A DNA stretch of 64,000 nt from Clostridia bacterium (GTDB taxonomy: Bacteria > Bacillota > Clostridia > Christensenellales > UBA1242), in contig JAZUBK010000043.1 of assembly GCA_045638465.1 (NCBI GenBank), positions 8,416 through 72,415 of the forward strand, given 5' to 3'. Position numbers and translations under genes: made by a program. Below, in pieces: positions 6,739-58,477 of the stretch. Position 1 is the stretch's first letter, and each line of letters begins with the position of its first letter. Under the pieces are notes generated by a model. It made no database searches, was not told the DNA's origin, and was given only the letters and a program-made list of their open reading frames with translations.

Positions 6739-6842
6739 ATAGACTTCCTCTTTATATACTATAGATATAACATTATTATATTTTTTTGTCAATTTTATTT
6801 AATTGTTTTGCAACTATTCCATAAATTTGTTAATATATATTT

Positions 6843-8107: not shown

Positions 8108-8449
8108 TTACACATTTTTGTTAATATTGGTAATTACAATGTCGGCATCTGTTTTTGCTACATTTGATATAAGCACTTTTCCGATCTCTATGCTTCTAGG
8201 AAGTTTAGCAGTCTTTATTTCTTTCAAAACTTCAAAGACTTTTTCTTTTGGCACAGGCTTTGAAGATTTTAGCGAAATTGTTTTGTCCTCGAACTTTTTG
8301 ATAGTTGTTATCATTCTCTCAGGCTTTGTTACTTCCCTTTCGCCATAGATTACACCTCTTGGGCAACCGCTACCCGTAACAGTAATCTTCTTGCCTTTGG
8401 TAACTTCTAGTTCGCAGCCTCTTGGGCACATAATACATATTACTTTCAT
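8108..8449 (-). CDS. DUF1667-domain protein (small subunit of the anaerobic glycerol-3-P dehydrogenase-type trio)
   Basis: 113 aa. MKVICIMCPRGCELEV...GSGCPRG is the cysteine pattern typical of DUF1667. TAATG start/stop overlap with the upstream gene. Confidence 0.7.
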   Translation of the reverse strand: MKVICIMCPRGCELEVTKGKKITVTGSGCPRGVIYGEREVTKPERMITTIKKFEDKTISLKSSKPVPKEKVFEVLKEIKTAKLPRSIEIGKVLISNVAKTDADIVITNINKNV

Positions 8450-11155: not shown

Positions 11156-11301
11156 ATTTACTCCTTTTTGTAAGTTTTTTGTTAAAAAATACTTTATTTA
11201 TTTTCAATTTAATAATATACTTTAGTTAAGAATAAGTCAATTATTAACAAATAGCAAATGTGTTTTATTATACATTTTTTGTTAAAAATAGGGGGGTGGC
11301 T

Positions 11302-12774: not shown

Positions 12775-12783
12775 GAGGCAGAT

Positions 12784-13833: not shown

Positions 13834-13841
13834 AAAAAAGG

Positions 13842-13863
13842 CCACCAATTATGGTGGTTTTTT
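13842..13863 (+). terminator. Intrinsic terminator of glpK-hydrolase unit
   Basis: Stem ccacca / tggtgg with loop atta, followed by a T-run. Confidence 0.7.
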
Positions 13864-13943
13864 ATATTTTGATATCATAATAGTTGGGATAACAATAAAT
13901 GTGTGATATATTATAAAAAACAAATATTGAAAGGAGTAACTAT

Positions 13944-17817: not shown

Positions 17818-17862
17818 AACATATAGTATTTGTAGCAAAAAACATACCACTATATATTGTGT
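17818..17862 (+). promoter_or_regulatory. Tandem NrdR boxes
   Basis: AACATATAGTATTTGT (17818-17833) and CCACTATATATTGTGT (17847-17862) both fit the NrdR consensus acaCwAtATaTwGtgt as I remember it. They sit between the -10 element and the nrdD RBS. Confidence 0.65.
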
Positions 17863-17883
17863 TACAAGCAAATGGAGGAAACT

Positions 17884-20034
17884 ATGATAAAAGTAATCAA
17901 AAAAGACGGAACTAGAGAAGAATACAACGTAGAAAAGGTTATTGCAGCGATTTCTAAGAGCGCATCAAGAGCACTTATTACCTTTAATGATGCAGAGCTT
18001 GACAGAATCAGAAATTTTGTTAACAACGAAGTAAAAAATCTTGGCATCAAAGAAATTCCTATTCCTACAATGCACAATATTGTAGAAAAGGCCCTAGAGA
18101 GCGTAGACGACAGAGTTGCAAAATCTTATAAAGACTATCGTAACTATCGTCAAGACTTTGTAAAAATGCTAGATAACGTATACCAAAAAGTTCAAAGCAT
18201 CGACTTTATAGGAGATAGAAGTAACGCAAATACTGACAGCACACTAGTATCTACAAAAAGATGTCTTGGCTGGAACGAACTAAACGGTGAGTTTTATAAA
18301 AAGTTCTTCTTGATGCCAGAAGAAAGACAAGCGATGAAAGAAGGATATATCTATATCCACGATAGAAGCGCAAGACTAGATACATATAACTGCTGTTTGT
18401 TTGACCTTGCTACTGTTTTAGATGGTGGTTTTGAACTAGGCAATATCAAATATACAGAGCCTACTACACTTGCTATTTGCTTTAACGTAATAGGTGACGT
18501 TATTATGGCGGCTGCTTCTCAACAATATGGCGGATTTACTTTGCCAGAAATTGACAAAACACTTAGCAAATACGCAGAAAAAAGCTACAAAAAATATTGT
18601 GATGAATATTCAAAAATAGTTGCTGATTTTGGCTCTACTCTACCTAAAAAAGACCTAGAGGCAAAAACTAAAGAATATGCATACAACAAAGTAAAAAGAG
18701 ATTTTGAGCAAGGTTTCCAAGCTCTAGAATACAAACTAAACACTGTAGGATCATCTCGCGGTGACTATCCATTTGTTGCCTTTACGTTTGGTCTTGGCGG
18801 TAGCGATTTTGAAAAGATGGCTACTAAAGCTATGCTAAAAGTAAGAGCTGGTGGTCAAGGTGCTCCAGGATTTAAAAAAGCTGTATTGTTCCCTAAACTT
18901 ATTTTCCTTTATGACGAAAACGTACACGGCAAAGGAAAATGCCTAGAAGATTTGTTTGATGCAGCAGTTGAATGCTCAAGACACGCTCAATACCCAGACT
19001 ATCTATCACTAAGCGGCGAAGGTTATATCGCTGATATGTACAAAACATACGGCAGGGTTATCTCTCCTATGGGTTGCAGAGCTTTCCTTTCTCCATACTG
19101 GGAAAAAGGTGGACAAAAGAAATGTGGCGACGACGACAAACCTGTATTTGTAGGTAGATTTAACGGCGGCGCTATCACACTTAACCTTCCTATGATATTT
19201 ATGAAGGCAAAAACTTCTGGAAGAGATTTCTTTGAAGTTTACCACGAATATCTAGAAATGATCAGACACTTACACAAGAGAACTAAAGATTTCCTTGGAA
19301 AACTAAAAGCTTCAAAAAGCCCACTTGCCTTTATGGAAGGAGGCCTTTACAAAGGTAAACTAAAAGCTAACGACTCTATTGCTCCACTACTTGATTATGT
19401 AACATTTAGCTTTGGTTATACAGCTCTAAACGAAGTACAAAGACTATACAACGGAAAATCAATCGTTGAAGATGGCGAATTTGCCCTAGAGGTAATGAGA
19501 TATCTTAACGAATATGTAAACAAAATCAAAGAAGAAGACAAAATCCTTTATGCAATCTACGGAACACCAGGCGAAAGCTTGATACCACTTCAAGTAAAAC
19601 AATTTAGAGCGGTTTATGGCATCATCGAAGGTGTTTCTGATAAAGACTACTTTACAAATAGTTTCCACTGCCACGTAGGTGAAAAAATCTCTGCTATCCA
19701 AAAACAAGACGCAGAAAAAAGATTCTGGGAACTATCAAACGGCGGAAAAATCACTTATACAAAATACCCTATCGATTACAACACTGAGGCTTTGAAAGCA
19801 GTAATCAGACGTGGTATGGCTATGGGCTTTTATCAAGGCGTAAATATGGATAAATGCTATTGCGAAGATTGTGGTTACGAACAACTAGACATGACAAAAT
19901 GTCCAAAGTGCGGTAGCGAAAACATAACAGAGGTAAACAGAGTATGCGGATACCTTGGTTATTCTAAAGTAAAAGGCAGAAGCTTTATGAACGACGGCAA
20001 ACTAGCCGAAATCAAAGATAGAGTTTCTATGTAG
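17884..20034 (+). CDS. nrdD: Anaerobic (class III) ribonucleoside-triphosphate reductase
   Basis: ORF 17857..20034. Preferred start is ATG 17884 behind GGAGGAA. N-terminal ATP-cone (MIKVIKKDGTREEY), C-terminal Zn ribbon CEDCG...CPKCG and glycyl-radical motif RVCGYLG. Confidence 0.9.
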   Translation: MIKVIKKDGTREEYNVEKVIAAISKSASRALITFNDAELDRIRNFVNNEVKNLGIKEIPIPTMHNIVEKALESVDDRVAKSYKDYRNYRQDFVKMLDNVYQKVQSIDFIGDRSNANTDSTLVSTKRCLGWNELNGEFYKKFFLMPEERQAMKEGYIYIHDRSARLDTYNCCLFDLATVLDGGFELGNIKYTEPTTLAICFNVIGDVIMAAASQQYGGFTLPEIDKTLSKYAEKSYKKYCDEYSKIVADFGSTLPKKDLEAKTKEYAYNKVKRDFEQGFQALEYKLNTVGSSRGDYPFVAFTFGLGGSDFEKMATKAMLKVRAGGQGAPGFKKAVLFPKLIFLYDENVHGKGKCLEDLFDAAVECSRHAQYPDYLSLSGEGYIADMYKTYGRVISPMGCRAFLSPYWEKGGQKKCGDDDKPVFVGRFNGGAITLNLPMIFMKAKTSGRDFFEVYHEYLEMIRHLHKRTKDFLGKLKASKSPLAFMEGGLYKGKLKANDSIAPLLDYVTFSFGYTALNEVQRLYNGKSIVEDGEFALEVMRYLNEYVNKIKEEDKILYAIYGTPGESLIPLQVKQFRAVYGIIEGVSDKDYFTNSFHCHVGEKISAIQKQDAEKRFWELSNGGKITYTKYPIDYNTEALKAVIRRGMAMGFYQGVNMDKCYCEDCGYEQLDMTKCPKCGSENITEVNRVCGYLGYSKVKGRSFMNDGKLAEIKDRVSM

Positions 20035-20044
20035 GAGAAGTATT

Positions 20045-20545
20045 ATGAATTATTACAGCATAACAAAAAACGATATGGTAAACGGAGATGGACTTAGAGT
20101 AGTTCTTTGGGTTGCTGGTTGCGACCACTGTTGCGATGGTTGTCACAACTCATATACTTGGGACAAAAACTCTGGCCTAAAATTTGACGATAGCGCAAAA
20201 AAAGAAATCTTTGACGAACTAGATAAAGACTGGGTTTCTGGTATTACATTTAGCGGTGGAGATCCTTTCCTTTGCGACAATAGAGAAACAGTAACAAACT
20301 TTATTGGCGAAATCGCTGAAAAGTACCCAAACAAAACAATCTGGCTATATACTGGCTTTACTTGGGAAGAAATAAACAACTTGCCAAACATCGACAAAAT
20401 TGATGTGCTAGTTGATGGCGAATTTGTAAGAAAGCTAAAAGTTCCAAAACTAAAATGGAAAGGTAGCTCTAACCAAAGAGTAATCGATGTAAAACAAACT
20501 CTAAACAAAGGTTATATCGTTCTTCATACTACAGATGAAGAGTAA
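20045..20545 (+). CDS. nrdG: Anaerobic RNR activating protein (radical SAM)
   Basis: 166 aa. GCDHCCDGCHN cluster motif. Immediately downstream of nrdD. Confidence 0.85.
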   Translation: MNYYSITKNDMVNGDGLRVVLWVAGCDHCCDGCHNSYTWDKNSGLKFDDSAKKEIFDELDKDWVSGITFSGGDPFLCDNRETVTNFIGEIAEKYPNKTIWLYTGFTWEEINNLPNIDKIDVLVDGEFVRKLKVPKLKWKGSSNQRVIDVKQTLNKGYIVLHTTDEE

Positions 20546-39596: not shown

Positions 39597-39671
39597 GTTT
39601 TTGTAGTTCAATGGATAGAACAGTCGCCTCCTAAGCGACCGATGCGGGTTCGATTCCCGCCGAGAACACCA
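39597..39671 (+). tRNA. tRNA-Arg (anticodon CCT)
   Basis: Manual cloverleaf. Acceptor gtttttg/cgagaac (two G-U pairs), D arm gttc..gaac, anticodon stem gtcgc/gcgac with loop ctCCTaa, T arm gcggg-ttcgatt-cccgc, encoded CCA. Confidence 0.85.
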
Positions 39672-45870: not shown

Positions 45871-46425
45871 TTAGTTGTATTTGTTGCAATATGGACATTC
45901 TGTGTCATTAGTGTTTTTTACATAAACACCGCCACAACCTTCGCACTTGATAGACCTTGCCTTGAAGGTCTTTTTTTCAAAACCATATATTGGCTCTTCG
46001 GTGATTTCAACAGCTGAGATATACCCAAACCTAAATAATCTGCTCACATATTTTCTGGTGCGCCTTGGTGACATTTTTAGCTTTTCGCTTAGTGACTGAT
46101 AATCTGTCACACCCTCTTGAATAAGTGCCCAAGTTCTTTTCATATTTCTTAGTCGTCGAAAGTTTGTCCAGATAAATGGTAAACCATAGAATCCTGCAAA
46201 CACACAAACGATTGAAAATACAAAAGTAACAAGAGATCTTTTTATATCAAAGGCAGACAAAATAATCATTGGTATACACGCTACAAACATCAGCGAAATA
46301 AGTATGCCAACAATCAAATTTAGTTTGATCTTTTTGTTAAGTTGATTCATTAATTTATTCCTTTTTACAATAGGTATTATATCATCACTAAAATATATTC
46401 CCAAACGATTTTGCACCATTGCCAA
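45871..46425 (-). CDS. Two-TM protein with a putative winged-helix segment and a C-terminal zinc ribbon
   Basis: 184-aa ORF. A later start at MNQLNKK is possible. CEGCGG...CPYC at the C-terminus. Confidence 0.5.
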   Translation of the reverse strand: MAMVQNRLGIYFSDDIIPIVKRNKLMNQLNKKIKLNLIVGILISLMFVACIPMIILSAFDIKRSLVTFVFSIVCVFAGFYGLPFIWTNFRRLRNMKRTWALIQEGVTDYQSLSEKLKMSPRRTRKYVSRLFRFGYISAVEITEEPIYGFEKKTFKARSIKCEGCGGVYVKNTNDTECPYCNKYN

Positions 46426-47065
46426 AAAAATTGCTTGTTTTATTTTTTGTCCCTATCCAAACTATTGCCTCATAAATCTTTTAACTTTCCACTCTAAAAG
46501 CATAGTATCTGTTTTGCTTTTTCATAAAAAATTACGTAAAAAACTCACAGTTTATTTTAGATGAAATAGGCATAAAAAAAATTACTCAAACATGCCGCAA
46601 ACAGCACCCCTAATCAAACCTTTATTTTCGACCATAAACTTAATAATTTATATGTCACGAATTTTCATTTTTATTAATTTTGTTGACAGATAAAAAGTCT
46701 CTAAAGTTATAACATTTTTGCAAATAAACGGCAATAAAATATTTTTCAATAAATAGACAATTTCTACTCATCTTACCCCGCCCCTTTAGCAACGGCCAAA
46801 AAACCGACCATGTGGTTTTGTTTCTCAAAAATTGCTTCACTTTTCCCCCGCAAATTGTGAGTCAATTTTTAGCCCAAATTATCACAAAAACCCCGCCGAA
46901 CGTTTGGTCTGATTTTTTATAAAAAGCCTATATTTAGGCGTTTTTTAATAAGACCAGACGGTCGGAAATGATTTTTTATCATCAGAAGAAAAAAGTGAGA
47001 AAACCACCCTAAAAAACACCTCAAAAAATGTTGCAAAAGTGCCACTAATTTTTGAACAAAAAGGA

Positions 47066-47094
47066 TTGAACTTTTAACTTTCTTAGTGTATAAT
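47066..47094 (+). promoter_or_regulatory. Near-consensus sigma-A promoter of the giant-protein operon
   Basis: TTGAAC (47066-47071), 17-nt spacer, TATAAT (47089-47094), preceded directly by TG. Confidence 0.6.
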
Positions 47095-47144
47095 GTTTTT
47101 CGGCAATAAAAATATATTATATATATTTTTAATTATTTATCAAA

Positions 47145-47166
47145 AGTTAACAATTAGTTAACAATT
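47145..47166 (+). repeat. Perfect tandem 11-mer AGTTAACAATT x2 in the operon leader (candidate operator)
   Basis: 47145-47155 and 47156-47166 are identical. Each copy contains the palindrome GTTAAC. Confidence 0.7.
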
Positions 47167-47222
47167 CTATTTTATACTTGCTTTGAGCGAAAAGCAAAAA
47201 TGGAAAAGGAGTCTAAAAAACT

Positions 47223-47972
47223 ATGGCAAGAAAAGCTAGAGAAATCAGCATCATTAATAGTTATGTTATTTGCTTTAACGCTAGAGAGAATTTGACCTTT
47301 GACGTGGGTGATAAAAGAAACTTTTTGTCACTACTAAATGGGCTAAAATCTGACGGCTTTGAACTTCTTGCCTACAACTTAAAAGACAGGGCTTTTTATC
47401 TTTTTGCTTTTGATATCAAAATGAGCATTGACACTTTGCTTAGAAAGATTGCAGTTAGATTTGCAAAAAGCTACAACCAACGCCATTGTCGCAGTGGTAA
47501 AGTTTTTGCTGATAGAGCGACTACTACCCCAGCCCAAAATTATGACGATGTTATTTCTATGATTTTGAGGATACACGAACTTAACGATATTCAACCTACT
47601 AAGTTTTGTAGTTTCAAAAAATACTTTGAAGATTCTAATATTGACCAAGCCTTTATTTTAGAAAAGTTTGGCTCTGAAGAAAACTTCTATGAGTATTCTA
47701 AAAACAAAAGCAACGTATCAACTGACTCTTTACAAAAGAAACTTTCAGACAACGAATTAGAAGAATATATCTTCAACACATACAAACTAGATAGTGAAGA
47801 AATCAAAAACTTATCTACTCGCAAAAAGGAAAACTTCGTAACTAGTTTGATCAAACTAACCAAAGCCTCAGCTAGACAAATAAGTAGAGTTACTAGTTTA
47901 CCTTTGAGATTCCTTTGGGACTTGTACAAAAAATCTTCAACAGAGGAAAGGAAAGATGGAGAAGCAAGATAA
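47223..47972 (+). CDS. Y1/HUH (IS200/RAYT, COG1943-type) transposase-like protein lacking catalytic residues, with a C-terminal DnaA-C-like HTH
   Basis: 249 aa. MARKARE..., LLAYNLKDRAFYLF, SGKVFADR, ILRIHELN align to the family consensus MPRKAR..., AYCLMxNHxHLL, GHLFQDRF, LRYIHxNP. C-terminal ASARQISRVTSLPLRFL is HTH-like. Confidence 0.65.
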   Translation: MARKAREISIINSYVICFNARENLTFDVGDKRNFLSLLNGLKSDGFELLAYNLKDRAFYLFAFDIKMSIDTLLRKIAVRFAKSYNQRHCRSGKVFADRATTTPAQNYDDVISMILRIHELNDIQPTKFCSFKKYFEDSNIDQAFILEKFGSEENFYEYSKNKSNVSTDSLQKKLSDNELEEYIFNTYKLDSEEIKNLSTRKKENFVTSLIKLTKASARQISRVTSLPLRFLWDLYKKSSTEERKDGEAR

Positions 47973-49221
47973 CAAAACAGATAAAGATTTGCCTTTAGAA
48001 AAAGTTAATAAGTCTACTAAAAAATCATCTACAAAAAAGCCACCTCAAAAAACTAACAATAGTGGCAAGAAAAAAGAAATCGAACTTCCAAAGTTTGAGT
48101 ACAAAAAACTTATCAATGAAGATGATGTAAAAAAAGAAGACTCTTTATCTAAAGTAGATGAGTTAACTACTAATTCTATAAAGACAGACAAATCTAAAAA
48201 ACTAAATAAATCTAAAAAAGAAAAAGCCAAGGCAAAAACAGATGAGCCAAAGCAAAAGAAAAAGTTTAACAAAAGATCTTTTGTTTCTATGTTAGTACTT
48301 TTTGTTTTGGGTATCAGTTCGGGACTTTTTGCTGGTAATTGGTATGCAACAAACTTTATAGCAGGACCAGCTACCGACTATAGTTTGTTTTCTGAAGTAG
48401 AACTTAGAGCGGGTAACGACAAAATTGCAGCAGACTACGCAAACAAAGTTCCAACAGCAGATAGTGCATGGAAATCATTTATCGCAGCAGAAAAGAACTT
48501 TTACTCTGCAGATACATTTGATATTTTGACCAACGGCGTTGTTGATACTATCGTAAAACAAGATTTTTATTCTAGAAAAATCTACAACGGCGAAAAATTT
48601 TATTTTGAACAAATAAGTGACGGTATGGTTGCGGTGGCTAGTAAATATGTTTATGAGCCATCTAAATATATCTTGGAAGACAAATCAACACACATTGTTT
48701 GCTCAAAGGCAAAACTTAACGGAACAAGAACTATTAACGATTATCTTACTTGTGATTTTGGCTGTAAGCATGGCAACAAAAATGCTTATATCTTTAACAC
48801 AGATTATTCAAGCAAAACAACTACAATGACAGAAGATGAGTTTATTGAGGCTCTTGGCGGCAAGACTCTTAGCCCTATCTCTTATATAGTCTCTGACAAA
48901 ACCGTACTATCTTGCGGAAAGTTCAAGGTAGTTGGCAGTGGAGACGACACTAGATATACATTTACTATGAACTTACATAGTGGCGCTTCTGTTCTAAACT
49001 ATGTTAAACAAATGAAAACCGTAAGTGGTTTGTCAGATTTTCCTACATTTACCGAAGTCGTTTTTAACGTTAGCCTTCAAATGCTAGACGGCAAGGTAAT
49101 GTTTGATTATATATGCATCTCAGAAAAATATAGCGTTCCTTATGGTTCACTTACACCTAAATGTACAGGAACACTACACCAAAGATTTTTATTTAACGGG
49201 GATTATACAATTCCTGCTTAG
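47956..49221 (+). CDS. Single-pass anchored protein: ~105-aa Lys-rich N-terminus, TM, ~295-aa extracytoplasmic domain of unknown fold
   Basis: 421 aa. Overlaps the upstream gene by 17 nt. TM is FVSMLVLFVLGISSGLFAGNWYA. Confidence 0.65.
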   Translation: MEKQDNKTDKDLPLEKVNKSTKKSSTKKPPQKTNNSGKKKEIELPKFEYKKLINEDDVKKEDSLSKVDELTTNSIKTDKSKKLNKSKKEKAKAKTDEPKQKKKFNKRSFVSMLVLFVLGISSGLFAGNWYATNFIAGPATDYSLFSEVELRAGNDKIAADYANKVPTADSAWKSFIAAEKNFYSADTFDILTNGVVDTIVKQDFYSRKIYNGEKFYFEQISDGMVAVASKYVYEPSKYILEDKSTHIVCSKAKLNGTRTINDYLTCDFGCKHGNKNAYIFNTDYSSKTTTMTEDEFIEALGGKTLSPISYIVSDKTVLSCGKFKVVGSGDDTRYTFTMNLHSGASVLNYVKQMKTVSGLSDFPTFTEVVFNVSLQMLDGKVMFDYICISEKYSVPYGSLTPKCTGTLHQRFLFNGDYTIPA

Positions 49222-49230
49222 GAGAAAGTT

Positions 49231-52200
49231 ATGAAAAAATTTCTAAAAGGATTGAGATACTTTTTGTGCTATGTGGCAATAACGCTATCCACAGCTGTAG
49301 GCGTGGTTGTTTATCAGTCAAATAGTGCAGGTAGTGTTAGCAACGGAAATTTAGCAGGTTCTACCGTAGGACAGGTAGAAAATAACTTAATGGAAGTTGT
49401 TACAAACTTAATGGACCTTGAAAGTTTTAATGTAAATAGCTCTGTATCATTAACTGATACCACAAAGCCTTCTTCAACACCTATTGATATTGACTTTAAT
49501 ATCGATATCAACCTAGGCACTGGGTTTTCTTCTATAGAGGCTGATGGTGTATTTGATATAGCACTAGACAACAAAACTTTTGATGTAGCAATTAGGTTTG
49601 TAGATAATACTTTCTATGTTTCTGCACTAGACCAAGATATTCAGTTCACAGCATCTGGACTTGTCGAGGGTATTGGCGGCGTACTAGCACTGCTTGATGT
49701 AGACCTTCCACTAGACAGTAGCCTTATGGAAAACTTTGACGTTACTGCACTTCTTGGATATATGGGTGAGTACAAAGAAGTAGAAACCGAAACAGGATAT
49801 AATATAAACCTTGAGTTTATGGGTTATGATATAGCAATGGTTTGCGACAACTTGTTTAACTTAAACTCAGTAGTAATAGAAAATATGGCTATTGAAGGGT
49901 TTAAAATTGACCTAAACTTAGGACTTGAAACTTATGAGCAAAAGGTTGAAATCACAAAACCTCAACATAGCTTTATAAATCTTGATACAGTAACAAGCCT
50001 TGTTAATATGACTCAAGATGTTTTAGAAAACAACTTTGTTATGGCAGATATCTCTGCAAGTTACGAAGGTATAAACCTAGACTTTAATGCTAAAGCAGAT
50101 TTTTCAGACAACTTTATTATGAGTCTTACAACTCCAGCTTTTGACGGAATTAACTTCTCTTTCAAAAATGGCAGTTTGTATGCAAACGTTGGCAACCTAA
50201 AAGTTAAAGGAAGAGCTGCCGATATATCTACAATAATTGATTTCGTAAACGGAGACTTGAGAGCAAATATCGAAAGCATCTCTCCAGAAATTGTAGAAAC
50301 TATCACCTCTAAGACAAATGAGATTACTTCATCTATCTCAAACGAACTAAAAAATATAGATGCAAATAAGCTTCTTGATTATATAGACTATCTAACAATA
50401 TCAGATAACCAAATCATTATTGATATACCAAGCACTGCCAAAGTTGTAATAGATATTGAAAGTGGTTATATTACTTCAATTACTGCAAACGCCTATGGCG
50501 TAGATCTTACAATAGATAATATATCTTTTGAAAAACAAGCTATCGAAATTAACACAAATGACTTTGTTGATTTTGACAAAGTATTCCCAACTTTCAAAAC
50601 TTTTGTAAACACACTATTTACAAAAGGTATCAGTGGTACAATGACATTTGGCCGTGGAAACAAAACAAACTCTCTAAACTACGGAATAAGATATACAAAC
50701 CACTTCGAAACAAGTTTTGATACAACTATATTAAACAAAACAGTTTCTGTAGTTTCAGACAACTCAAAAGTTTATTTGATGGTAGATGGCATAAAGGTAA
50801 ATGTAGACCTTGCCGAATACCAAACAATTATTGATTACATAAACGAAACCTTTAATCAAAACATTTCTTTGCCTAGCTTTGAGATGCCAGAGATTGACCC
50901 ATACACAATGGTTGTCGGGGCTATCTCTTCTATAGATTATCTAAAAGCTATTGATAGTGGCATCGAACTATCTATAGGCGGAATTGTTATCCAAATTATT
51001 TCAAACGAAAACTATATCCAAACGCTAAATGTAAAATACAACGATTATTCATTTGCTCTAAATATTACAGGTTACGGCGAAGTTGAATTGTTTGACATAG
51101 ACAAAGACGACTACCTAGTATTTAGCGATCTTACAAACTACGTAGACAAAGCAACAAGCTTTGCAAATAGCACAAGCTTTAATATGCACCTTGGCATTAT
51201 GGCAGACATAAATGGCACAGACATTACAGCGATGGCAGACGGAAGAGTTGGACTAAACGGAAATGTAGAAGCAACCGTTACTACTACAGTTAATGATTTT
51301 GGCCTAGATTTCTCTATGGCTTTGACTGATGATGCTTTGGGCCTAACATATGACGGACTAAACGTTTATGCAAAACAATCATCAATTGGTGCTCTTACAA
51401 ACATTATCAAAAACATTGTTCCAAATTATGTAAATATTGATAGTTTGCTACAACAAAATAATATAGACCTTGATAAAACACTAAGCTCAGACATTAAACT
51501 TCCTGCTATAGATACAAAACAACTTATCTTAGCAGTAAAACGACTAAATCTTAACAAAGATACTCTAACAGCAGAACTTGACTGCAGCGAATTCACTTCA
51601 GGCGAAAAATCAACTGCAATTGTCGTTGTAAGAATGGTAAATGGCGGATACGAACTAAGAATAGGTTTAGTATATAACGATATAGTTATTAATTTGTACC
51701 TAAAACTTACTTCTACAGAAGACTTTACAGCTTCTATTCCAGCAGATGCAATCGATGTGGAAGACTACTTAAATCTTGTAGAATATATGCACAATACAAT
51801 CGATAGCAGAAATCTAGCACTAGACGTAACTGCAACAATCGACCAAACAGAAATTGTAGCTAAAGTTCTTGCAGACTTTAGATCTACTCTAAAAGTTAAA
51901 GCAACAACAGAAAGTTTGGGTAGCAAACTAGATGTTGTTTATGCAAGTGATATAAACAAACTACTTGTTACATTTGGTGATATCAAAATCTCAGGCAAAT
52001 CTTCTGACCTTGCAGATATCCTAAACTTTGTAAAAGTAGACCTAAACAATGCGCTTTTAACTTATGGCGAAAAGGCTTTGTCAAAGGTTAACTTTGAAAG
52101 TCTAACTCAAAGCAAAGATACAACTATTACATTTGAGGATATAAAAGATATCCTACACTCTATCACATTTGGTGATGACACAATTAGTTTTGTAAAAGAT

Positions 52201-55200
52201 AACATTGTTGTTACTTTGACAATTACAAACAAATCAATCTCAAATATCAAGTTTGCTATAGATAATATCGTAGTAAATGTAGGTGTTTCAGACAATACCC
52301 AAGCAATTACATACACAACTGCAGGTTATAGTGCATTTGAAAACATCTTGGATAATCTAAAAGCAATTACAAATGTTGCAACCTCTCAAGCTTTTGGCGG
52401 AAAGGTAACTATAACTTACAACAAAGATAAAACTTACACAGGAAACCTAAAAGTTAACTACATTAATAATGTATTGAGCGTTCATGTAGATTCTAACGTC
52501 TACGACCAAGATATATCTATTGATATTATTGGCTCTATAGTTTATGTAAAACTAAACGAACTAAAACTTCAAGTTTCTTGGGCAGAAAGATATGCTCTTC
52601 AAGAATATCTAAATTCAAAATTTGATTTACAATTAGATATTGATGCTATATTCAATATGGCAAAAGGCGTTGCAAGTTCTACAAAAGACTTTAGCCTAGA
52701 CAATATCAATATCGACTTTATCTCAAACTTTGTAGCAAACAAAAACGGCCTTGACATTACAGTAAGTGATATTCCTGTATCTCTTGGCATCGCAAAATAC
52801 GGCGACACTGACAAAAACTATTTGTCTTATATCTCTGCAGGTTATGACAAATTTGACATTTCAATTAACGAAATGACATTTGGTCAAGACGCAATAGTAA
52901 ATAGCGTAAACGCAACAGAATATCACAAGTACACAGACTTTACAAAATATTTCGACGAGATAGAGAGATTGATCAACGCATCTAAAGATAGCGCAACAGA
53001 CCAATACACTCTAAAAGGCGGAATCAAACTATACAAACTAGACGCAAACGGCAATGCTCTTGTAACTGATGGAGTTGCAGATGAAATCACAATCTCTATT
53101 AATGATTTGAAATTTGACGCAACCAAGAACACCTTTATTGGCGGAATCGATGCTAAAGGCTCTGGCTCACTATACGAAAGTTACCTTTCTGGCTATGACC
53201 ACAGCTTTGATGCGGCATATGATTATAACTTCATCTATTTTGATTACAACGGCCTAAGAGCTAAGTTTAGTAAACAAAGTAACAGTGAGTTTATCACCAC
53301 TCTAAAGAAAATGCTTCCTACATATCTTGGCGACACTCCGCTTACAAGACAATTAGTTTCTATATTTGATATGATTAGGTTTGACACTATGGGTAATATG
53401 TTATTCAACCCAGTAAAACTTGACGTAACATACAATATGATAGAACAATTTGCTCCTATGCTATCTACACTAAAATTAGAAGAAAATGGCAGCCTAACTA
53501 TTGGACTTGACATCTCTACACTAGACCCAACATTTAAAGAAGAATTGCTTTTGAATGTATCTATTGACGAAAGCGGTAGACTTGCTCTAGTTATAAACAA
53601 ATTCAAACTAACAAAAGATCTTGCTATTGACTTTACAATCTATGTAGACACTGCAAGTACCTTTACTGTAAATCCAGAGGGCGACTATCTTGATATGACT
53701 TCTATTGGCAAACTTCTTAGCGATTTTGATAACACAGCCCAAAAGACAACTACCGACAACGAAGTTTATAAACTAAACCTAAGTGGTAGCTTCCACCTAA
53801 AGATTGCAGTAAGCTTTATCAAGATCAACGAAGATATCCCATTTAAAGCACAACTTATCATCGATAGAAACAGCAATCAATTAATCGAAGCAAAAATCGA
53901 AGTTGATATGCCATCTATTATTTTAGTTACCGATGGTTGCTACTCAACTCTATATCTAACCAATAGACTAGAGGGCGAAAATATTTTGTATATTGATAGA
54001 CAAGGCAAAGACCCTCTAAAATCAAAATACAAAGTAAGTGAGCTTGGCGCTAACCTACTAAATGTTATTTCTGATATTACTGCAATATCTTCATCAACCC
54101 TAGAAACATTTATGACTATGGACATCAAATATATCGATGGCCCATCTAAGGCAGAAAATGTATTGAAAGATTATTCTTGCGTAACAGGAATAAATACAAG
54201 AGATTATACTATTGGCCTAGACCTAAGACAAATTACTCGTATGGATATGATGCTTGGCTACTCTGCATCTAACCCTACAGGAGTTGTTATCCATTCACAA
54301 AACAACGCTTTCTCATCAATTGATATCAACAATATAACCTTAGAGGCTATATCAAATGTATTTATTTATGTAAATGGTACAATCGACCTTACAAAGATAA
54401 ATCAAACAAGTGATATTATAGGCGAAATCGAAAACCTTGACGCTACACTTTATGGCTCATGGGGTGATGGTAGCTTAGTTGCTGACTTTATCGAAAATGG
54501 TGGTAGCAACGTTCCAAACAAAATGGGAACAACTGGTAGAAGCTTTACTCTTCCTGTTCCTGTAAAAGAAGTTGTAAACGGCAACACCTTAGAAGTTTAT
54601 AAATTCCTTGGCTGGAGCCTAAATAGTGACGGTAGCGGAGAGCTTTATAACGGCAAATATATGTTCGAAACAAGTTCTCTTACATTCTACGCTGTATGGG
54701 AGCTAGATACTGTCTACACAAGCAGAACAATTAATTTTGTTACAGAGTATCTAATGGCAAATGGTATCGATAGTAAAGTAGAAAACAATATATCATCTAT
54801 TACAAACTATAATGGATACGACATCTCAAACAGCTTACCAACTATAAGCGACACAGTTACTATCTACTACGAAGACGAAGGCGTATCTATCACATATAGA
54901 TATGACGGTTTATTTAAAACAAGAACAGTAAATAGTGACGGAACTATTGTCTATAGCGACAAGTTTGATCAAACAGTTATGCCAAACGAAGATTTGACAT
55001 TGTATGCAAGTTTTGTGGAAATCGACAGAGTTTATAAGAGAAAACTTACTATCTTAGATGAAAGCAAGACTTTGTACGAAGGTTACTTCGTAGAAGGCGA
55101 TGTTATCGACATCTTGAGTTTGGTTGCATACAAAGATACAACTAGATGGTATGATGATTATGACGCTACTGCTACAACAAGATACACCAACGAAATCTTA

Positions 55201-55893
55201 ACAGTTGACCTTCCAACCACAATGCCAAGAGGAAATGACCTATCACTATATGTTAGAAATAAGTATACTATTACTTATACTTCAAACTTCGGTGACAAAA
55301 AGACATATACTCAAACAGATTATCAAGGAGAACCTATTTCTCTTCCTACTCAAACAAGTTATGAAAATATCGTATACAAAGAAGAAAAAGATTCTGACGG
55401 AAATAAGATTCCAAACTACCTATCAACATTTGTATATGAAGGTTATACATTGAGTACTGATTCTTCAGTTGCAGTACCAAGCGTTATTCCAAGCAAAAAC
55501 GCAACATATGCAGCAAAATGGTCAAATATAACTACAAGTTATGTAAAAGTTACCTTCTCTTCTCCTTGGGTAAAACCAAGTGCTTGGTGGTTTGGTTGTT
55601 CTCAAGAAGTGGCGCCTAGAGGAACTCTTGTAAGATATGTTCTAAACGGCTCAACTCTAAACAATACAACCCTAAGCAAAAAGACCTCTATTATTGGTCT
55701 TACTGCAAACGAAGACGAAAACATTTCTGACTACTGTGTATATAAATATGCTATAAAATATAAATTCTCTATTACCGTATGGAATAAAGAAGGCGCTAAA
55801 AACCACAACACAGGAAGTGCAACAGCAAAGAGTTGGACAATTACTGGCGATACAACATTCTATGGAGAATGGGAGTGCACAGGCATTGTTTAA
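49231..55893 (+). CDS. Giant (2,220 aa) N-terminally anchored exoprotein with ~195-aa periodic modules and C-terminal Flg_new-type repeats
   Basis: Uninterrupted ORF with RBS AGGAGA. N-terminal helix YFLCYVAITLSTAVGVVVY. Seven recurring beta-strand/helix anchor motifs. C-terminal YKFLGWSLNSDGSGELYNGKYMF..LTFYAVWE. Confidence 0.8.
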   Translation: MKKFLKGLRYFLCYVAITLSTAVGVVVYQSNSAGSVSNGNLAGSTVGQVENNLMEVVTNLMDLESFNVNSSVSLTDTTKPSSTPIDIDFNIDINLGTGFSSIEADGVFDIALDNKTFDVAIRFVDNTFYVSALDQDIQFTASGLVEGIGGVLALLDVDLPLDSSLMENFDVTALLGYMGEYKEVETETGYNINLEFMGYDIAMVCDNLFNLNSVVIENMAIEGFKIDLNLGLETYEQKVEITKPQHSFINLDTVTSLVNMTQDVLENNFVMADISASYEGINLDFNAKADFSDNFIMSLTTPAFDGINFSFKNGSLYANVGNLKVKGRAADISTIIDFVNGDLRANIESISPEIVETITSKTNEITSSISNELKNIDANKLLDYIDYLTISDNQIIIDIPSTAKVVIDIESGYITSITANAYGVDLTIDNISFEKQAIEINTNDFVDFDKVFPTFKTFVNTLFTKGISGTMTFGRGNKTNSLNYGIRYTNHFETSFDTTILNKTVSVVSDNSKVYLMVDGIKVNVDLAEYQTIIDYINETFNQNISLPSFEMPEIDPYTMVVGAISSIDYLKAIDSGIELSIGGIVIQIISNENYIQTLNVKYNDYSFALNITGYGEVELFDIDKDDYLVFSDLTNYVDKATSFANSTSFNMHLGIMADINGTDITAMADGRVGLNGNVEATVTTTVNDFGLDFSMALTDDALGLTYDGLNVYAKQSSIGALTNIIKNIVPNYVNIDSLLQQNNIDLDKTLSSDIKLPAIDTKQLILAVKRLNLNKDTLTAELDCSEFTSGEKSTAIVVVRMVNGGYELRIGLVYNDIVINLYLKLTSTEDFTASIPADAIDVEDYLNLVEYMHNTIDSRNLALDVTATIDQTEIVAKVLADFRSTLKVKATTESLGSKLDVVYASDINKLLVTFGDIKISGKSSDLADILNFVKVDLNNALLTYGEKALSKVNFESLTQSKDTTITFEDIKDILHSITFGDDTISFVKDNIVVTLTITNKSISNIKFAIDNIVVNVGVSDNTQAITYTTAGYSAFENILDNLKAITNVATSQAFGGKVTITYNKDKTYTGNLKVNYINNVLSVHVDSNVYDQDISIDIIGSIVYVKLNELKLQVSWAERYALQEYLNSKFDLQLDIDAIFNMAKGVASSTKDFSLDNINIDFISNFVANKNGLDITVSDIPVSLGIAKYGDTDKNYLSYISAGYDKFDISINEMTFGQDAIVNSVNATEYHKYTDFTKYFDEIERLINASKDSATDQYTLKGGIKLYKLDANGNALVTDGVADEITISINDLKFDATKNTFIGGIDAKGSGSLYESYLSGYDHSFDAAYDYNFIYFDYNGLRAKFSKQSNSEFITTLKKMLPTYLGDTPLTRQLVSIFDMIRFDTMGNMLFNPVKLDVTYNMIEQFAPMLSTLKLEENGSLTIGLDISTLDPTFKEELLLNVSIDESGRLALVINKFKLTKDLAIDFTIYVDTASTFTVNPEGDYLDMTSIGKLLSDFDNTAQKTTTDNEVYKLNLSGSFHLKIAVSFIKINEDIPFKAQLIIDRNSNQLIEAKIEVDMPSIILVTDGCYSTLYLTNRLEGENILYIDRQGKDPLKSKYKVSELGANLLNVISDITAISSSTLETFMTMDIKYIDGPSKAENVLKDYSCVTGINTRDYTIGLDLRQITRMDMMLGYSASNPTGVVIHSQNNAFSSIDINNITLEAISNVFIYVNGTIDLTKINQTSDIIGEIENLDATLYGSWGDGSLVADFIENGGSNVPNKMGTTGRSFTLPVPVKEVVNGNTLEVYKFLGWSLNSDGSGELYNGKYMFETSSLTFYAVWELDTVYTSRTINFVTEYLMANGIDSKVENNISSITNYNGYDISNSLPTISDTVTIYYEDEGVSITYRYDGLFKTRTVNSDGTIVYSDKFDQTVMPNEDLTLYASFVEIDRVYKRKLTILDESKTLYEGYFVEGDVIDILSLVAYKDTTRWYDDYDATATTRYTNEILTVDLPTTMPRGNDLSLYVRNKYTITYTSNFGDKKTYTQTDYQGEPISLPTQTSYENIVYKEEKDSDGNKIPNYLSTFVYEGYTLSTDSSVAVPSVIPSKNATYAAKWSNITTSYVKVTFSSPWVKPSAWWFGCSQEVAPRGTLVRYVLNGSTLNNTTLSKKTSIIGLTANEDENISDYCVYKYAIKYKFSITVWNKEGAKNHNTGSATAKSWTITGDTTFYGEWECTGIV

Positions 55894-55899
55894 TAAAAC

Positions 55900-55931
55900 A
55901 AAAAAAGACTAGAATTTTTCTAGTCTTTTTT
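55900..55931 (+). terminator. Intrinsic terminator of the giant-protein operon
   Basis: Stem agactag / ctagtct followed by a T-run. Confidence 0.7.
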
Positions 55932-56031: not shown

Positions 56032-57513
56032 TTATTTCTCTGCATATTTTTTCTCAAAATATTTGATTAATACTTTCTTTGCATTTTCGCTATTTACATA
56101 AGCAAACCATCTAATCTCTGCTATTGGTTTTAAAAGTCCAGTTTTGCTGTCAGTTTCGTTATAAACAACGACTTGGTCGCCCTCTACAAGCCTTGTATAA
56201 GGCGGTTTTGGGTTTGGCGACTTATTTATCAAAGCATATTTACACGAAAGCCCTAGGTCATTGTGAACCTTAAAAGCAAAGTCCAAAACCGTACTATTTT
56301 CTGGAAGGCGTATATGTTCTCCGCTACGGGTTTTTACTGTAATATATCTTTTTGCAATATCACCAATAATGTTGTCATCAATAAGGTCAATCTCTGAACT
56401 ATCAGTTGTTCCGTTACGCATCAAAATATATTGTTCCATAGTCATAGCTGTTATTCTATATTTGATCAAACTACGATCTTGAACAATAAGGTAATGAAGG
56501 CCGTATCTATCGTTCTTTTCGTATCCTATAACCTTTAGGTCGTCATTTAGCACTCCTGCGTCAAACATTTCATATACTAGGTGAAATATATTGTCTTTGG
56601 TATTTCCATTAAAAATAAAGTATAGTTTAACAGTAGGCATACGGTTAAAAGAGTTACGCCTTATGTGTTTGATAGAGTTTATCTCAAGGTGCTTTTTCAT
56701 ACGTTCGCAAAGACTATATAGAGTATCCCTTTCAAAAATGATTTTGCTATAAGAATATTCTTTTTTTGCAAAGTAATTGTTGGCCTTATAGTTTATATTA
56801 TCACAAAGGTCATTAATATGGCTTACACACGAATCAAAATATCTATTGTATCTACCACAAAGGTCGCCATACAACTCTCTATTTAGTATTTTGTAGCACT
56901 CATCTTTTAGGTTGTCATAAAAGTATTTTGATCTCAAAAGATATGCTAGAGGAATTATCCACTTTTGAGTTTCTTTAACCTTTTCTACCTGCTTATATTC
57001 GCTAAAAGTTTCTATCGTGCGAAGGTTGTGTAGTCTATCGGCAAACTTGATATAAAAGGCAAGTTTGTTTTGTTTACCAAAAGATATTAACTTGTTAAAA
57101 GTTTGGTCATCAAGGCTTTCTTTTTTGAAATTTTCATCATAAAAGATATCTTTGATTGAAGTTTCGTTTTCTTCGATTGCGGTTACTGCATCTACAATAT
57201 TTGCAACGTTTTCATCAAAAGCTTCTCTTATCTCAGAAATTGTACAACCACAATCTTCTACTACGTCGTGAAGAAGTGCTGCAGCTATCATTTCGCTGTC
57301 AAAGTCTAGTTCGGCCAAAATCTTTGCTACGGCTACGGGGTGGCTTATGTATGGTGTGCCGTCTTTACGCATTTGGCCATTATGTAATTTTTCGGCAAGG
57401 TTGAAGGCGTTGACAACATTTAGTATACCTGTCGATTCGTTCCTTTTCAAAATCGCAAGTATATCTTCAAAATCTTGCTTATAATCTATCATCTTCATCT
57501 CCATATGAGCCAT
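56032..57513 (-). CDS. RelA/SpoT homolog: intact HD (p)ppGpp-hydrolase domain, degenerate synthetase-like region, TGS domain; no C-terminal ZFD/ACT region
   Basis: 493 aa. HNGQMRKDGTPYISHPVAVA, AALLHDVVED (H82 D83), FADRLHNLRT. TGS-like ITVKTRSGEHIRLPENSTVLDFAF. Start ambiguous (57513, 57504 or 57492). Confidence 0.75.
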   Translation of the reverse strand: MAHMEMKMIDYKQDFEDILAILKRNESTGILNVVNAFNLAEKLHNGQMRKDGTPYISHPVAVAKILAELDFDSEMIAAALLHDVVEDCGCTISEIREAFDENVANIVDAVTAIEENETSIKDIFYDENFKKESLDDQTFNKLISFGKQNKLAFYIKFADRLHNLRTIETFSEYKQVEKVKETQKWIIPLAYLLRSKYFYDNLKDECYKILNRELYGDLCGRYNRYFDSCVSHINDLCDNINYKANNYFAKKEYSYSKIIFERDTLYSLCERMKKHLEINSIKHIRRNSFNRMPTVKLYFIFNGNTKDNIFHLVYEMFDAGVLNDDLKVIGYEKNDRYGLHYLIVQDRSLIKYRITAMTMEQYILMRNGTTDSSEIDLIDDNIIGDIAKRYITVKTRSGEHIRLPENSTVLDFAFKVHNDLGLSCKYALINKSPNPKPPYTRLVEGDQVVVYNETDSKTGLLKPIAEIRWFAYVNSENAKKVLIKYFEKKYAEK

Positions 57514-58477
57514 CCCTTATCATACGGAAGAAACTATCATCTTCGCTATTTGATACCTTTGCAAATCGGAACATATTAGCGTCCAAAGTTTCTTTAACAA
57601 TGTTTTCTAAGCTATCGCTTATGATTCTTTGTTTTTGGAAATCATTAAGGCCGCTTGGGTTATCCATGTCCTCAAGGTATAGATTTTTGAACAAAGTAAT
57701 TAATTGGTTACTTTCGGTTTGAACGTTTACTTCGCTTATATCAAGAGACAATCTTTGGTAAAGTTCTCCGTCTGGTATTTTGAATAACTTTTCGCTCATT
57801 ATAATATATTGAACGCAAGGCATCTTTTCTCTACCACGAGCAACAGAGTTAACTGTTCCTAGTCCACCAATATATTTGTTATTGCTAGGTGGGTTGTTTA
57901 AAATAATCAAACAATGGTCTTCTTCTAGATTGTTTTTCATTAAAATAAATATTTGAGCGGCAGAAGATTCCAAAGTTCCAGTATACTTTAGCTCTTGCTC
58001 CATATAATAATCAACTTTTTGCTTTTCGCTCTTTAGCATAGATAGGTATTTAAAAGTTTCTTCCATTTCTTTTCTGCTATCAAAAAACTTAGCAAAAACT
58101 TTCAATCCATCTTTTTCTTTACCTTCGCCAAGAATAGAGATAATACCATATCTTAGGATATTGGTTGATCTGTGCACTCTACCTTTGTAAACGTTGGTGT
58201 CATAATAATATAGTGCGTACTCTCCCACAAATCTAGTGTCGGCTTTTGTTAGTTCTCTCTTTTCGGTAGGGGTGATAGGCCCTGTCAAAAACTTATCTAT
58301 ATCAATGCCATACGCCCTTTTTAATTTCAAAAGAAAACTAGCAGATGGGTCGCTGTTTTTGTTTAGATAATTGTTTACTGACGCAGGAGAAACCCCCGTA
58401 TCTTCAGCAATCTTCTTTTGGCTATATTTATCTGCCAAAACTTTTAGATTCGATGTAAAGTAATTTAGTTCGCTCAT
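57479..58477 (-). CDS. XRE-family HTH protein with ~260-aa unknown C-terminal domain
   Basis: 332 aa. RBS AAGGAGA. KKIAEDTGVSPASVNNYLNKNSDPSASFLLKLKRAYG is an HTH. Overlaps the downstream RSH gene. Confidence 0.7.
   Translation of the reverse strand: MSELNYFTSNLKVLADKYSQKKIAEDTGVSPASVNNYLNKNSDPSASFLLKLKRAYGIDIDKFLTGPITPTEKRELTKADTRFVGEYALYYYDTNVYKGRVHRSTNILRYGIISILGEGKEKDGLKVFAKFFDSRKEMEETFKYLSMLKSEKQKVDYYMEQELKYTGTLESSAAQIFILMKNNLEEDHCLIILNNPPSNNKYIGGLGTVNSVARGREKMPCVQYIIMSEKLFKIPDGELYQRLSLDISEVNVQTESNQLITLFKNLYLEDMDNPSGLNDFQKQRIISDSLENIVKETLDANMFRFAKVSNSEDDSFFRMIRDGSYGDEDDRL

Follow-up and report, generated by a model that had tools for sequence, protein, structure and literature searches.

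Introduction

The three-gene operon in a 64-kb stretch of Clostridia bacterium contig JAZUBK010000043.1 (hereafter the window, meaning the whole stretch analysed) raises the question of why a protein resembling a transposase should be encoded together with two membrane-anchored proteins, one of them 2220 amino acids (aa) long. An earlier, sequence-only reading had described the products as a dead Y1-transposase/helix-turn-helix (HTH) protein, a Lys-rich anchored protein and an anchored giant, and the genes are here termed orf1, orf2 and giant. Related loci and proteins used for comparison bear names of the form L### and P####, respectively. The answer proposed here, to which as a whole we assign an even chance of being right, is that of an autoregulated operon building a long, membrane-anchored surface fibre. 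It starts from the operon and its conservation, passes through the ancestry of orf1 and a short motif preceding its promoter, and ends with the predicted folds of the two envelope proteins.

Organisation of the operon

The three open reading frames (ORFs) have exactly the boundaries given by the sequence-only reading, with a 17-nt overlap between orf1 and orf2 and a 9-nt gap between orf2 and giant, and are bracketed by one promoter and one terminator:

47066-47094, forward strand: sigma-70-type promoter, TTGAAC-17-TATAAT, 10/12 consensus match
47146-47162, between the -10 element and the ribosome-binding site: GTTAAC-N5-GTTAAC element, sole match to this pattern in the window
47223-47972, forward strand: orf1, 249 aa
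47956-49221, forward strand: orf2, 421 aa
49231-55893, forward strand: giant, 2220 aa, bitopic
55901-55931, both strands: bidirectional intrinsic terminator, a 14-pair hairpin with A/T runs at both sides

A Shine-Dalgarno sequence is present for all three ORFs, and the ribosome-binding site of giant contains the stop codon of orf2. Promoter-like hexamer pairs are not enriched as a class in this AT-rich region (52 found versus 46 expected), so that the promoter call rests on conservation: the operon -10 element shows no variation in the orthologous loci L005 and L008, and a near-consensus promoter occurs at the equivalent position in almost all of 31 related loci. Both signals claimed at the ends of the operon were borne out, the promoter by its conservation, the terminator, a strong one, by its paired hairpin with T-runs. 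The GTTAAC-N5-GTTAAC element is conserved in L001, L004, L005 and L008, of which L001 and L004 lack orf1, and would represent a second operator-like site, subclade-specific and unrelated to the 15-mer described below. The genes flanking the operon are ordinary chromosomal genes on the opposite strand, and GC content is uniform over operon and flanks.

Conservation of the three-gene module

Protein relatives were searched among 5.8 billion protein clusters, yielding 14 for giant, 28 for orf1 and 11 for orf2, and when GTDB species representatives were scanned with the orf1 alignment, 30 loci were retrieved, all from uncultured metagenome-assembled genomes (MAGs) that bear the labels Clostridia, Christensenella, Bacilli or Coprobacillus. 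The order orf1-orf2-very large ORF (1650 to >3035 aa) recurs in nearly all loci and holds down to 28% orf1 identity; it is common to about 30 GTDB species-level MAGs and 4 metagenome contigs. When all ORFs of 34 loci were clustered into families, orf2 was present in 34/34, orf1 in 32/34 and giant in 30/34, every other family being confined to nine loci at most. Since only these three families are widely common to the loci, their adjacency is selected and the module consists of exactly these three genes; synteny, named beforehand as a test of the unit, is thus strongly conserved.

The set is less constant than its order. In L001 and L004, very close relatives of the window whose GatB is 92-94% identical, orf2 and giant occupy the same slot and orf1 is gone, so that the three-gene unit stands as an arrangement, but with orf1 dispensable in two sister lineages. 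The third gene of 'Bacilli'-labelled MAGs is either short (768-961 aa) and homologous to the N-terminus of giant (hhalign probability 89-95%) or, in L021, L023 and L025, replaced by an unrelated short-chain dehydrogenase (SDR) gene, with orf1 and orf2 kept. Each locus has the module once, close relatives having it at the same chromosomal position, and no orf1 paralogue was found elsewhere in the window; between distant lineages, the neighbours of the module vary. The operon is a vertically inherited, self-contained unit of an uncultured low-GC gut Firmicutes clade. One locus with the full Firmicutes-type module, L019 (CAVEBU010000015.1), is labelled Alistipes finegoldii; its orf1 identity resembles that of the Christensenella-labelled loci, and the label probably reflects a mistake made in binning or labelling this public record.

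Orf1 as a dead transposase

Two parts can be distinguished in orf1:

orf1 residues ~1-125: Y1/HUH transposase domain, by homology
orf1 residues ~205-235: putative C-terminal HTH, with TKASARQISRVTSLPLRFLW

Neither orf1 nor any of 22 family members has a direct Pfam match. A profile of the orf1 family, run against 1.84 billion representatives, found 8092 proteins, and matches at E 1e-22 to 1e-32 pass the gathering score of PF01797 (Y1_Tnp) over residues ~12-123 and show a weak C-terminal HTH. As it is these relatives, and not orf1, that pass PF01797, the homology of orf1 to Y1_Tnp is transitive, the fold being presumably retained. The joint alignment places the HUH motif of the active proteins, NHxHLL, against DRAFYLF in orf1 and their catalytic-tyrosine motif, RYIHxNP, against LRIHE, the NP..KAG loop being deleted in orf1. 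The residues aligned with the HUH histidines are A57 and Y59, and no family member has histidine at either position (0/22); R116 takes the place of the catalytic tyrosine, likewise missing throughout (0/22). The C-terminal segment TKASARQISRVTSLPLRFLW, in turn, is almost invariant and aligns with sub-threshold HTH_7, HTH_23 and HTH_3 matches of the relatives.

Having lost the HUH histidines and the catalytic tyrosine, orf1 would no longer be able to cut DNA. Judged from these alignments, it is a divergent TIRYT-type Y1/HUH transposase with an HTH, catalytically dead, in agreement with the dead Y1-transposase/HTH protein of the sequence-only reading. The parent group, subclass 2.1 of the TnpA_REP-like proteins ('TIRYT'), is characterised by a C-terminal HTH and by terminal inverted repeats (TIRs) sharing GGGGWSAS (Quentin 2018, PMC6006769; Di Nocera 2013, PMC3733652).

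A transposon-end-type motif upstream of the promoter

Inspection of the 170 nt that precede orf1 in each locus revealed a 15-mer with the consensus GTTGCAAAAGGGACA. Of the 32 loci with orf1, 27, among them the window, have it on the coding strand with no more than two mismatches, at a distance of 50-215 nt upstream of the gene, and in most of them it is exact. Four of the other five have variants with a one-base indel or, in the case of L008, with three mismatches; the match in L015 is much weaker, and a promoter-proximal copy could not be confirmed there. The 15-mer is essentially absent from the rest of the 644 kb examined and absent from the orf1-less loci L001 and L004. The distance from its 3' end to the -35 element is 6-9 nt (14 loci) or 16-18 nt (16 loci), two spacing classes that differ by one helical turn, and 20-21 nt in the window and L005. 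In seven loci, a further copy follows closely after the -10 element. The window copy is as follows:

47030-47044, forward strand: motif copy GTTGCAAAAGTGCCA, two mismatches to GTTGCAAAAGGGACA, 21 nt upstream of the -35 element

The origin of the 15-mer is suggested by apparently active relatives of orf1. The element encoding P0075 has AGCAAACAGGGGGACGGTTCTCTGTTTG on one side and the inverted copy on the other and occurs in three insertion contexts, which indicates recent mobility; that of P0072 likewise lies between CATGGGGACGTTTCCTTTGCCACA and an inverted copy of it, and its -35 element (TTGCCA) begins 6 nt after GGGGACG. The TIR sequence types of these elements, GCAAACAGGGGGACGGTTCT for P0075 and GGGGACGTTTC for P0072, are the same as that of the orf1-family motif, which in extended form is GCAAAAGGGACA(G/C)TTCT. 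Because motif and TIRs agree in both sequence type and promoter distance, we conclude from the comparison that domestication of the transposase left the left TIR in place. Motif copies at the orf1 loci, with the core (A/G)GGGACA(C/G), are direct only and lie upstream, and a downstream inverted copy was found in no locus. Apparently active TIRtrons with Y1_Tnp and HTH domains were seen in L063-L065 (genes 74-841, 105-872 and 246-1013) and L066-L067 (1501-2250), with perfect or near-perfect TIRs, CAAAC(A/G)(G/A)GGGGACGGTTCTCTGTTTG and CA(T/G)GGGGACGTTTC(C/G)TTTGCCACA.

Compared with TIRYT (TnpA_REP subclass 2.1) elements, orf1 shares the succession of Y1 and HTH in a protein of ~250 aa and a TIR-type motif immediately upstream of the promoter. 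It differs in lacking the HUH histidines, the catalytic tyrosine and the NP..KAG loop, in having the left-end motif only, sometimes as direct repeats, and in being single-copy, vertically inherited and joined in an operon with two envelope genes; orf1 is not flanked on both sides by GGGGWSAS TIRs. In the active relatives, both TIRs are present. Precedents for such a fate are domesticated bacterial transposon proteins that serve as transcription factors, for example the TnpB-derived TldR (10.1101/2023.11.30.569447). Like orf1, TldR is a transposon DNA-targeting protein that has lost catalysis but not its targeting of DNA, lies beside presumed host target genes and is inherited vertically. The ancestor of orf1, however, is a Y1 HUH transposase rather than an RNA-guided nuclease, and its regulation would depend on recognition of an exapted TIR by the HTH.

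The same observations bear on the reading of the whole module as a mobile or conflict element (an active, cargo-bearing TIRtron, a fibre module of a prophage, or a defence system) or as a fortuitous adjacency, which we regard as hardly credible. It could draw on the transposase ancestry of orf1, on the different insertion contexts of its active relatives and on the changing neighbours of the module between distant lineages. Set against these are the loss of catalytic residues in 22/22 family members, the missing inverted right-end motif, one copy per locus in the same slot in close relatives, a GC content matching the flanks, an order kept across about 30 species, and PADLOC and PHROGs searches without significant match. 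As regards a phage or defence origin, the fold matches in BFVD were meaningless, with low probabilities and TM-scores (template modelling scores) <0.1 for the top tail-fibre-type matches and at most 0.29 overall.

Other explanations of the motif were also considered. A sigma-54 promoter has the consensus TGGCAC-N5-TTGCA, and the 15-mer fits it neither in spacing nor in strand. Phase variation by an invertible promoter was rejected, the copies being direct, not inverted, and orf1 lacking catalytic residues. A wider regulon was sought by scanning metagenomes, not whole genomes, for the operator followed by TTGAC: four of the 28 matches lie on contigs with orf1 homologues directly downstream, other targets are unsupported, and most of the remaining matches fall on higher-GC contigs, in line with a rough chance expectation. 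Near-matches to the 15-mer also occur inside neighbouring minus-strand genes, at 45883-45897 in the window and at 9368-9382 and 9410-9424 in L007. They were taken as coincidental, as the reverse complement encodes CPxCN zinc-ribbon sequences (KCPHCN, KCPYCN, ECPYCN), whose codons are a trap for scans with this motif.

The 15-mer and the promoter lie in an intergenic gap of 797 nt (46426-47222), which the sequence-only reading had taken for a structured non-coding leader of ~800 bp. The length was right, but the structure was not supported: the fold z-score is -2.2 (20 shuffles), the sole Rfam match is a spurious snoRNA (E 0.025), and no meaningful repeats were seen. Conservation is limited to the proximal ~200 nt, the distal 600 nt being not conserved, and a structured RNA or riboswitch was rejected on these grounds (Rfam, z-score and lack of distal conservation). 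A GC-rich hairpin, GCCTATATTTAGGC (46926-46939), with T-runs on both sides, resembles a terminator in the middle of the non-conserved part, with no adjoining gene visible.

Predicted architecture of orf2

The partner protein can be divided into three parts:

orf2 residues 1-104: disordered, Lys-rich cytoplasmic tail
orf2 residues 106-134: transmembrane helix with GxxxGxxxG
orf2 residues ~140-421: predicted LolA/LprG/RseB-like ectodomain

A single hydrophobic segment was detected (aa 107-128), and in the AlphaFold2 (AF2) model a disordered tail (1-104) is followed by a helix (106-134) and an ectodomain with a predicted local distance difference test (pLDDT) mostly >80. The best Foldseek matches of this model in the PDB were LprG, LolA-LolB, RseB, DUF1329 and lipovitellin/ApoB, all LolA-like lipid-binding half-barrels, with E 2.5e-4 and a target-normalised TM-score of 0.50 for LprG 3mha. 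The ectodomain of orf2 is thus predicted to adopt a LolA/LprG/RseB-like fold. As for the description of orf2 as a Lys-rich anchored protein, the anchor held good, whereas the Lys-rich tail is limited to the window subclade, most homologues having 3-23 cytoplasmic residues. The orf2 homologues of 'Bacilli' MAGs (L020, L021, L023 and L025) begin with a lipoprotein signal peptide (LLVGC, LMVGC, LSSC). In L020, the orf2 homologue is at 10729-11559 and is followed by a shortened giant at 11572-13878, which also has a lipoprotein signal peptide. The idea that orf2 is a single-unit paralogue of the giant repeat finds no support in the sequence, hhalign giving no similarity.

Proteins of comparable build are known in Firmicutes. 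SsdC (YdcC) of B. subtilis, 338 aa, combines an N-terminal transmembrane segment with an extracytoplasmic MucB/RseB-like domain and has a morphogenetic role (PMC7769602), and GerS of C. difficile is a LolA-like lipoprotein and amidase activator (10.1101/2025.01.13.632879). The orf2 family shares with them the short tail, the transmembrane helix or lipobox and a predicted LolA/RseB-like ectodomain of ~280 aa. It differs from them in that no sequence relatedness was detected, in the lack of a sporulation context for the operon, and in the pairing of orf2 with orf1 and usually with giant.

This architecture invites a reading in which orf1 and orf2 form a signal-transduction pair: orf2 would sequester or release orf1 in an anti-sigma-like manner, with a LolA-like DUF4367 or RseB-type sensor, and giant would be the regulated cargo. 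The overlapping frames of orf1 and orf2, their persistence, greater than that of giant (32 and 34 of the 34 loci) and seen even without it in L021, L023 and L025, and the action of RseB/MucB-type domains in envelope-stress signalling are all consistent with it. Yet the cytoplasmic part of most orf2 proteins, at 3-23 residues, and its absence in the lipoprotein forms leave nothing to hold a regulator, and orf2 persists without orf1 in L001 and L004; we therefore judge such a pair distinctly improbable.

Predicted architecture of giant

The regions recognised in giant are the following:

49252-49317, forward strand, residues 8-29: conserved N-terminal transmembrane helix, motif Y-x-x-I-T-x-x-T-A-x-G-V-V
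49387-53730, forward strand, residues ~53-1500: about seven predicted tandem LolA-like units of ~190-200 aa each
54364-55890, forward strand, residues ~1712-2220: C-terminal Flg_new-type (Listeria-Bacteroides) repeats

Self-comparison with hhalign aligned residues 206-871 with 789-1524 (E 6e-40), with a sub-period of ~200 aa and a repeated region spanning ~100-1524. The AF2 model of residues 1-1200 contains six units (53-240, 250-435, 448-620, 631-830, 843-1025 and 1038-1230), with a mean pLDDT of 66.8 and a predicted TM-score (pTM) of 0.36; a seventh, at ~1250-1500, is suggested by internal homology. In each modelled unit, a helix precedes six strands, and two or three further helices precede another five, an order that corresponds to the topology of LolA. 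Foldseek matched RseB, LolA, LprG, LprF and MucB with probability 1.0, target-normalised TM-scores of 0.45-0.57 and E values of 3e-5 to 1e-3. The units are thus predicted to have a LolA-like fold, i.e., an unclosed antiparallel beta-barrel with a helical lid. The Flg_new-type repeats reported at the C-terminus are weak in giant itself (PF09479 at aa 1753-1822, E 6.5e-4, 20.2 bits versus a cut-off of 27) but clear in homologues, the giant of L010 scoring 67 bits and most database homologues having a precomputed PF09479 match; internal repeats of ~110 aa cover residues 1712-2220. The protein ends in ...WECTGIV, with no LPXTG, and the Pfam scan detected no SLH or CW_binding domains.

Like orf2, giant has one hydrophobic segment (aa 8-29), in accordance with the single N-terminal transmembrane helix claimed for each. 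In both proteins, conservation is highest in these helices and extends even to homologues that are ~20% identical overall, which suggests contact within the membrane. Giant diverges faster than housekeeping genes, with an identity of 48-49% where that of GatB is 92-94%, and nearby small membrane proteins diverge about as fast. Length in the family ranges from 768 to >3000 aa, with a variable number of repeats. Its close homologues P0001, P0003 and P0005 (2797-2826 aa) have ~590 more residues than giant, about three LolA-like units, and as this equals the period of the large internal duplication, the units are gained or lost three at a time.

Apart from Flg_new, scanning the three proteins against Pfam and NCBIfam gave sub-threshold noise only; the matches to Cas_APE2256, DUF6040 and SepX were low-complexity or Lys-rich artefacts. 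Searches of PDB sequences, with single sequences and profiles, gave no match, and PADLOC and PHROGs gave noise-level matches only. The sequence-only reading had stated that membership of giant and its partner in well-characterised adhesin or S-layer families would count against it; across these five resources, both proteins fall outside such families, Flg_new excepted. Its remark that no family motif could be named is correct at the level of sequence, but a fold can now be named by prediction.

Among characterised proteins, LolA, LolB, LprG, LppX and RseB/MucB are the nearest to the models, with the same order of N-terminal helix, six strands, lid helices and five strands and with the top Foldseek matches. 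Differences from this superfamily, DUF4367 included, are the absence of any sequence match of orf2 or giant to its Pfam, NCBIfam or PDB members, the anchoring of both proteins by transmembrane helices in presumably monoderm hosts, and the presence of about seven units in one chain.

The fold itself suggests a relay, in which orf2 would move hydrophobic cargo out of or into the membrane and hand it along the LolA-like cavities of giant, a bucket brigade reminiscent of LolA/LolB, LprG or the LptC-LptA bridge, with regulation by orf1 unchanged. Candidate cargoes would be lipids, glycolipids of the lipoteichoic-acid type, lipoproteins or lipids scavenged from host or diet. The characterised members of the fold (LolA, LolB, LprG, LprF and RseB/MucB) bind acyl chains, and the operon combines one domain close to the membrane with a chain of several, all of this fold class. 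In the model, the helices that link strands 6 and 7 of each unit, at the position of the LolA lid, are of low confidence and possibly mobile; the transmembrane helices are conserved. We nevertheless consider the relay doubtful, although it is the main alternative to the surface fibre: the hosts, labelled Clostridia or Bacilli, are presumably monoderm and offer no obvious acceptor membrane, the number of repeats is free to vary, giant diverges fast and is missing from some loci, and LolA-like proteins of Firmicutes can have non-lipid roles, as in GerS (10.1101/2025.01.13.632879) and SsdC (PMC7769602). Taken together, the precedents from Firmicutes favour neither reading over the other.

Genomic surroundings

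The upstream flank of the operon contains genes for a chromate transporter, a bPH_2 protein and a DUF805 protein, and the downstream flank an HD_4/TGS gene, an HTH_3 gene and GatB/GatA. The HD_4+TGS gene (56032-57513, reverse strand) encodes a RelA/SpoT-like hydrolase in which no synthetase domain was detected, and overlaps the gene of a 332-aa HTH_3 protein (57479-58477, reverse strand). This pair adjoins the operon in 6-7 loci, including the distant L003, where it lies 4 kb downstream in the other orientation, and may reflect more than local synteny. Elsewhere in the window, a 1044-aa predicted surface protein with Big_9, Cadherin_5 and Bact_surface_Ig-like domains (3658-6792, reverse strand) is unrelated to giant. 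Ordinary anaerobe housekeeping genes occupy 8449-13833 and 17857-20545. Among their products are FAD oxidoreductases with DAO+BFD, probably glycerol-3-phosphate dehydrogenase, a carbohydrate kinase of the FGGY family that may be a glycerol kinase, an S33 hydrolase and NrdD, the anaerobic ribonucleotide reductase. The gene of NrdD is followed by a small ORF, at a place where an NrdG-type activase would be expected. A tRNA-Arg(CCT) is at 39597-39671.

Discussion

In the explanation we favour, orf1 would be a domesticated TIRYT-type Y1 (HUH) transposase that no longer cuts DNA and has kept an invariant HTH, and the relic of the left TIR, of the GTTGCAAAAGGGACA type, situated at a fixed helical phase shortly before the -35 element, would serve as its operator. 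By binding the 15-mer through the HTH, orf1 would autoregulate the operon. We lean towards repression over activation, given the near-consensus promoters, the second motif copies downstream of the -10 element and the persistence of the operon without orf1. At the membrane, orf2 and giant would associate through their conserved transmembrane helices, so that orf2 and the first unit of giant would form the base of a fibre, the LolA-like modules its stalk and the Flg_new repeats its distal tip, projected through and beyond the wall. Variable repeat number, fast divergence of giant and Flg_new repeats in its homologues are traits of surface proteins, and the most likely role of the envelope pair is an adhesin-like one in surface binding or scaffolding, for which we infer surface exposure and a ligand. 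Firmicutes fibrillar adhesins with Flg_new similarly combine giant size, variable tandem repeats and fast divergence. Unlike them, giant would be held by an N-terminal transmembrane (or lipid) anchor instead of a C-terminal LPXTG, its predicted stalk is LolA-like and not Ig-like, and a dedicated partner (orf2) and a dedicated regulator (orf1) are co-conserved with it.

Several observations weigh against this explanation. The folds derive from medium-confidence AF2 models (for giant, mean pLDDT 66.8 and pTM 0.36) built on shallow alignments of 10-12 sequences, and the Foldseek E values reach only 1e-5 to 1e-3. Both envelope proteins are lipoproteins, not transmembrane-anchored, in 'Bacilli' MAGs, which argues against an obligatory contact between transmembrane helices, and three loci carry orf1 and orf2 without giant. 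In the window itself, the motif copy is degenerate (two mismatches) and off-phase (21 nt), and a second, unrelated operator-like element is present (GTTAAC-N5-GTTAAC); given the orf1-less sister lineages, control by orf1 may be decaying in the window subclade, or control may be shifting in this lineage, where the GTTAAC element is kept even without orf1. To our knowledge, moreover, LolA-like domains are not known as a stalk module of fibrillar adhesins.

The components are of known kinds, namely the Y1 transposase superfamily, the LolA-like fold and Flg_new surface repeats. Literature searches turned up neither surface proteins with tandem LolA-like domains nor dead Y1 transposases with a regulatory role, and we found no description of a dead TIRYT with an exapted TIR, of a tandem LolA-like array in one giant protein or of the conserved three-gene combination. 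That the locus would hold both the first described dead Y1/HUH (TIRYT) transposase exapted as a sequence-specific transcription factor, with its own former TIR as operator, and a new lipid-relay machine of monoderm gut Firmicutes is, as a joint claim, unlikely. If it were true, orf2 would be a LolA-like loader and giant a series of seven or more carrier domains across the wall, a monoderm counterpart of the Lol/Lpt/LprG logic.

On the regulatory side, the locus would offer a testable case of bacterial domestication in which protein and transposon end were co-opted together, the HTH being kept and catalysis lost. It would also hint that the C-terminal HTH of TIRYT proteins recognises the GGGACA-type TIR, a point left open by Quentin et al. 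(PMC6006769). The module defines three families without a Pfam model, restricted to uncultured Clostridia and Bacilli MAGs of a kind common in human and animal gut metagenomes. For these bacteria, presumably devoid of an outer membrane, the predicted architecture would mean that many copies of a lipid-carrier fold can be joined in one giant chain anchored in the membrane, providing either a new stalk for surface fibres or a new route for hydrophobic molecules across the Gram-positive wall.

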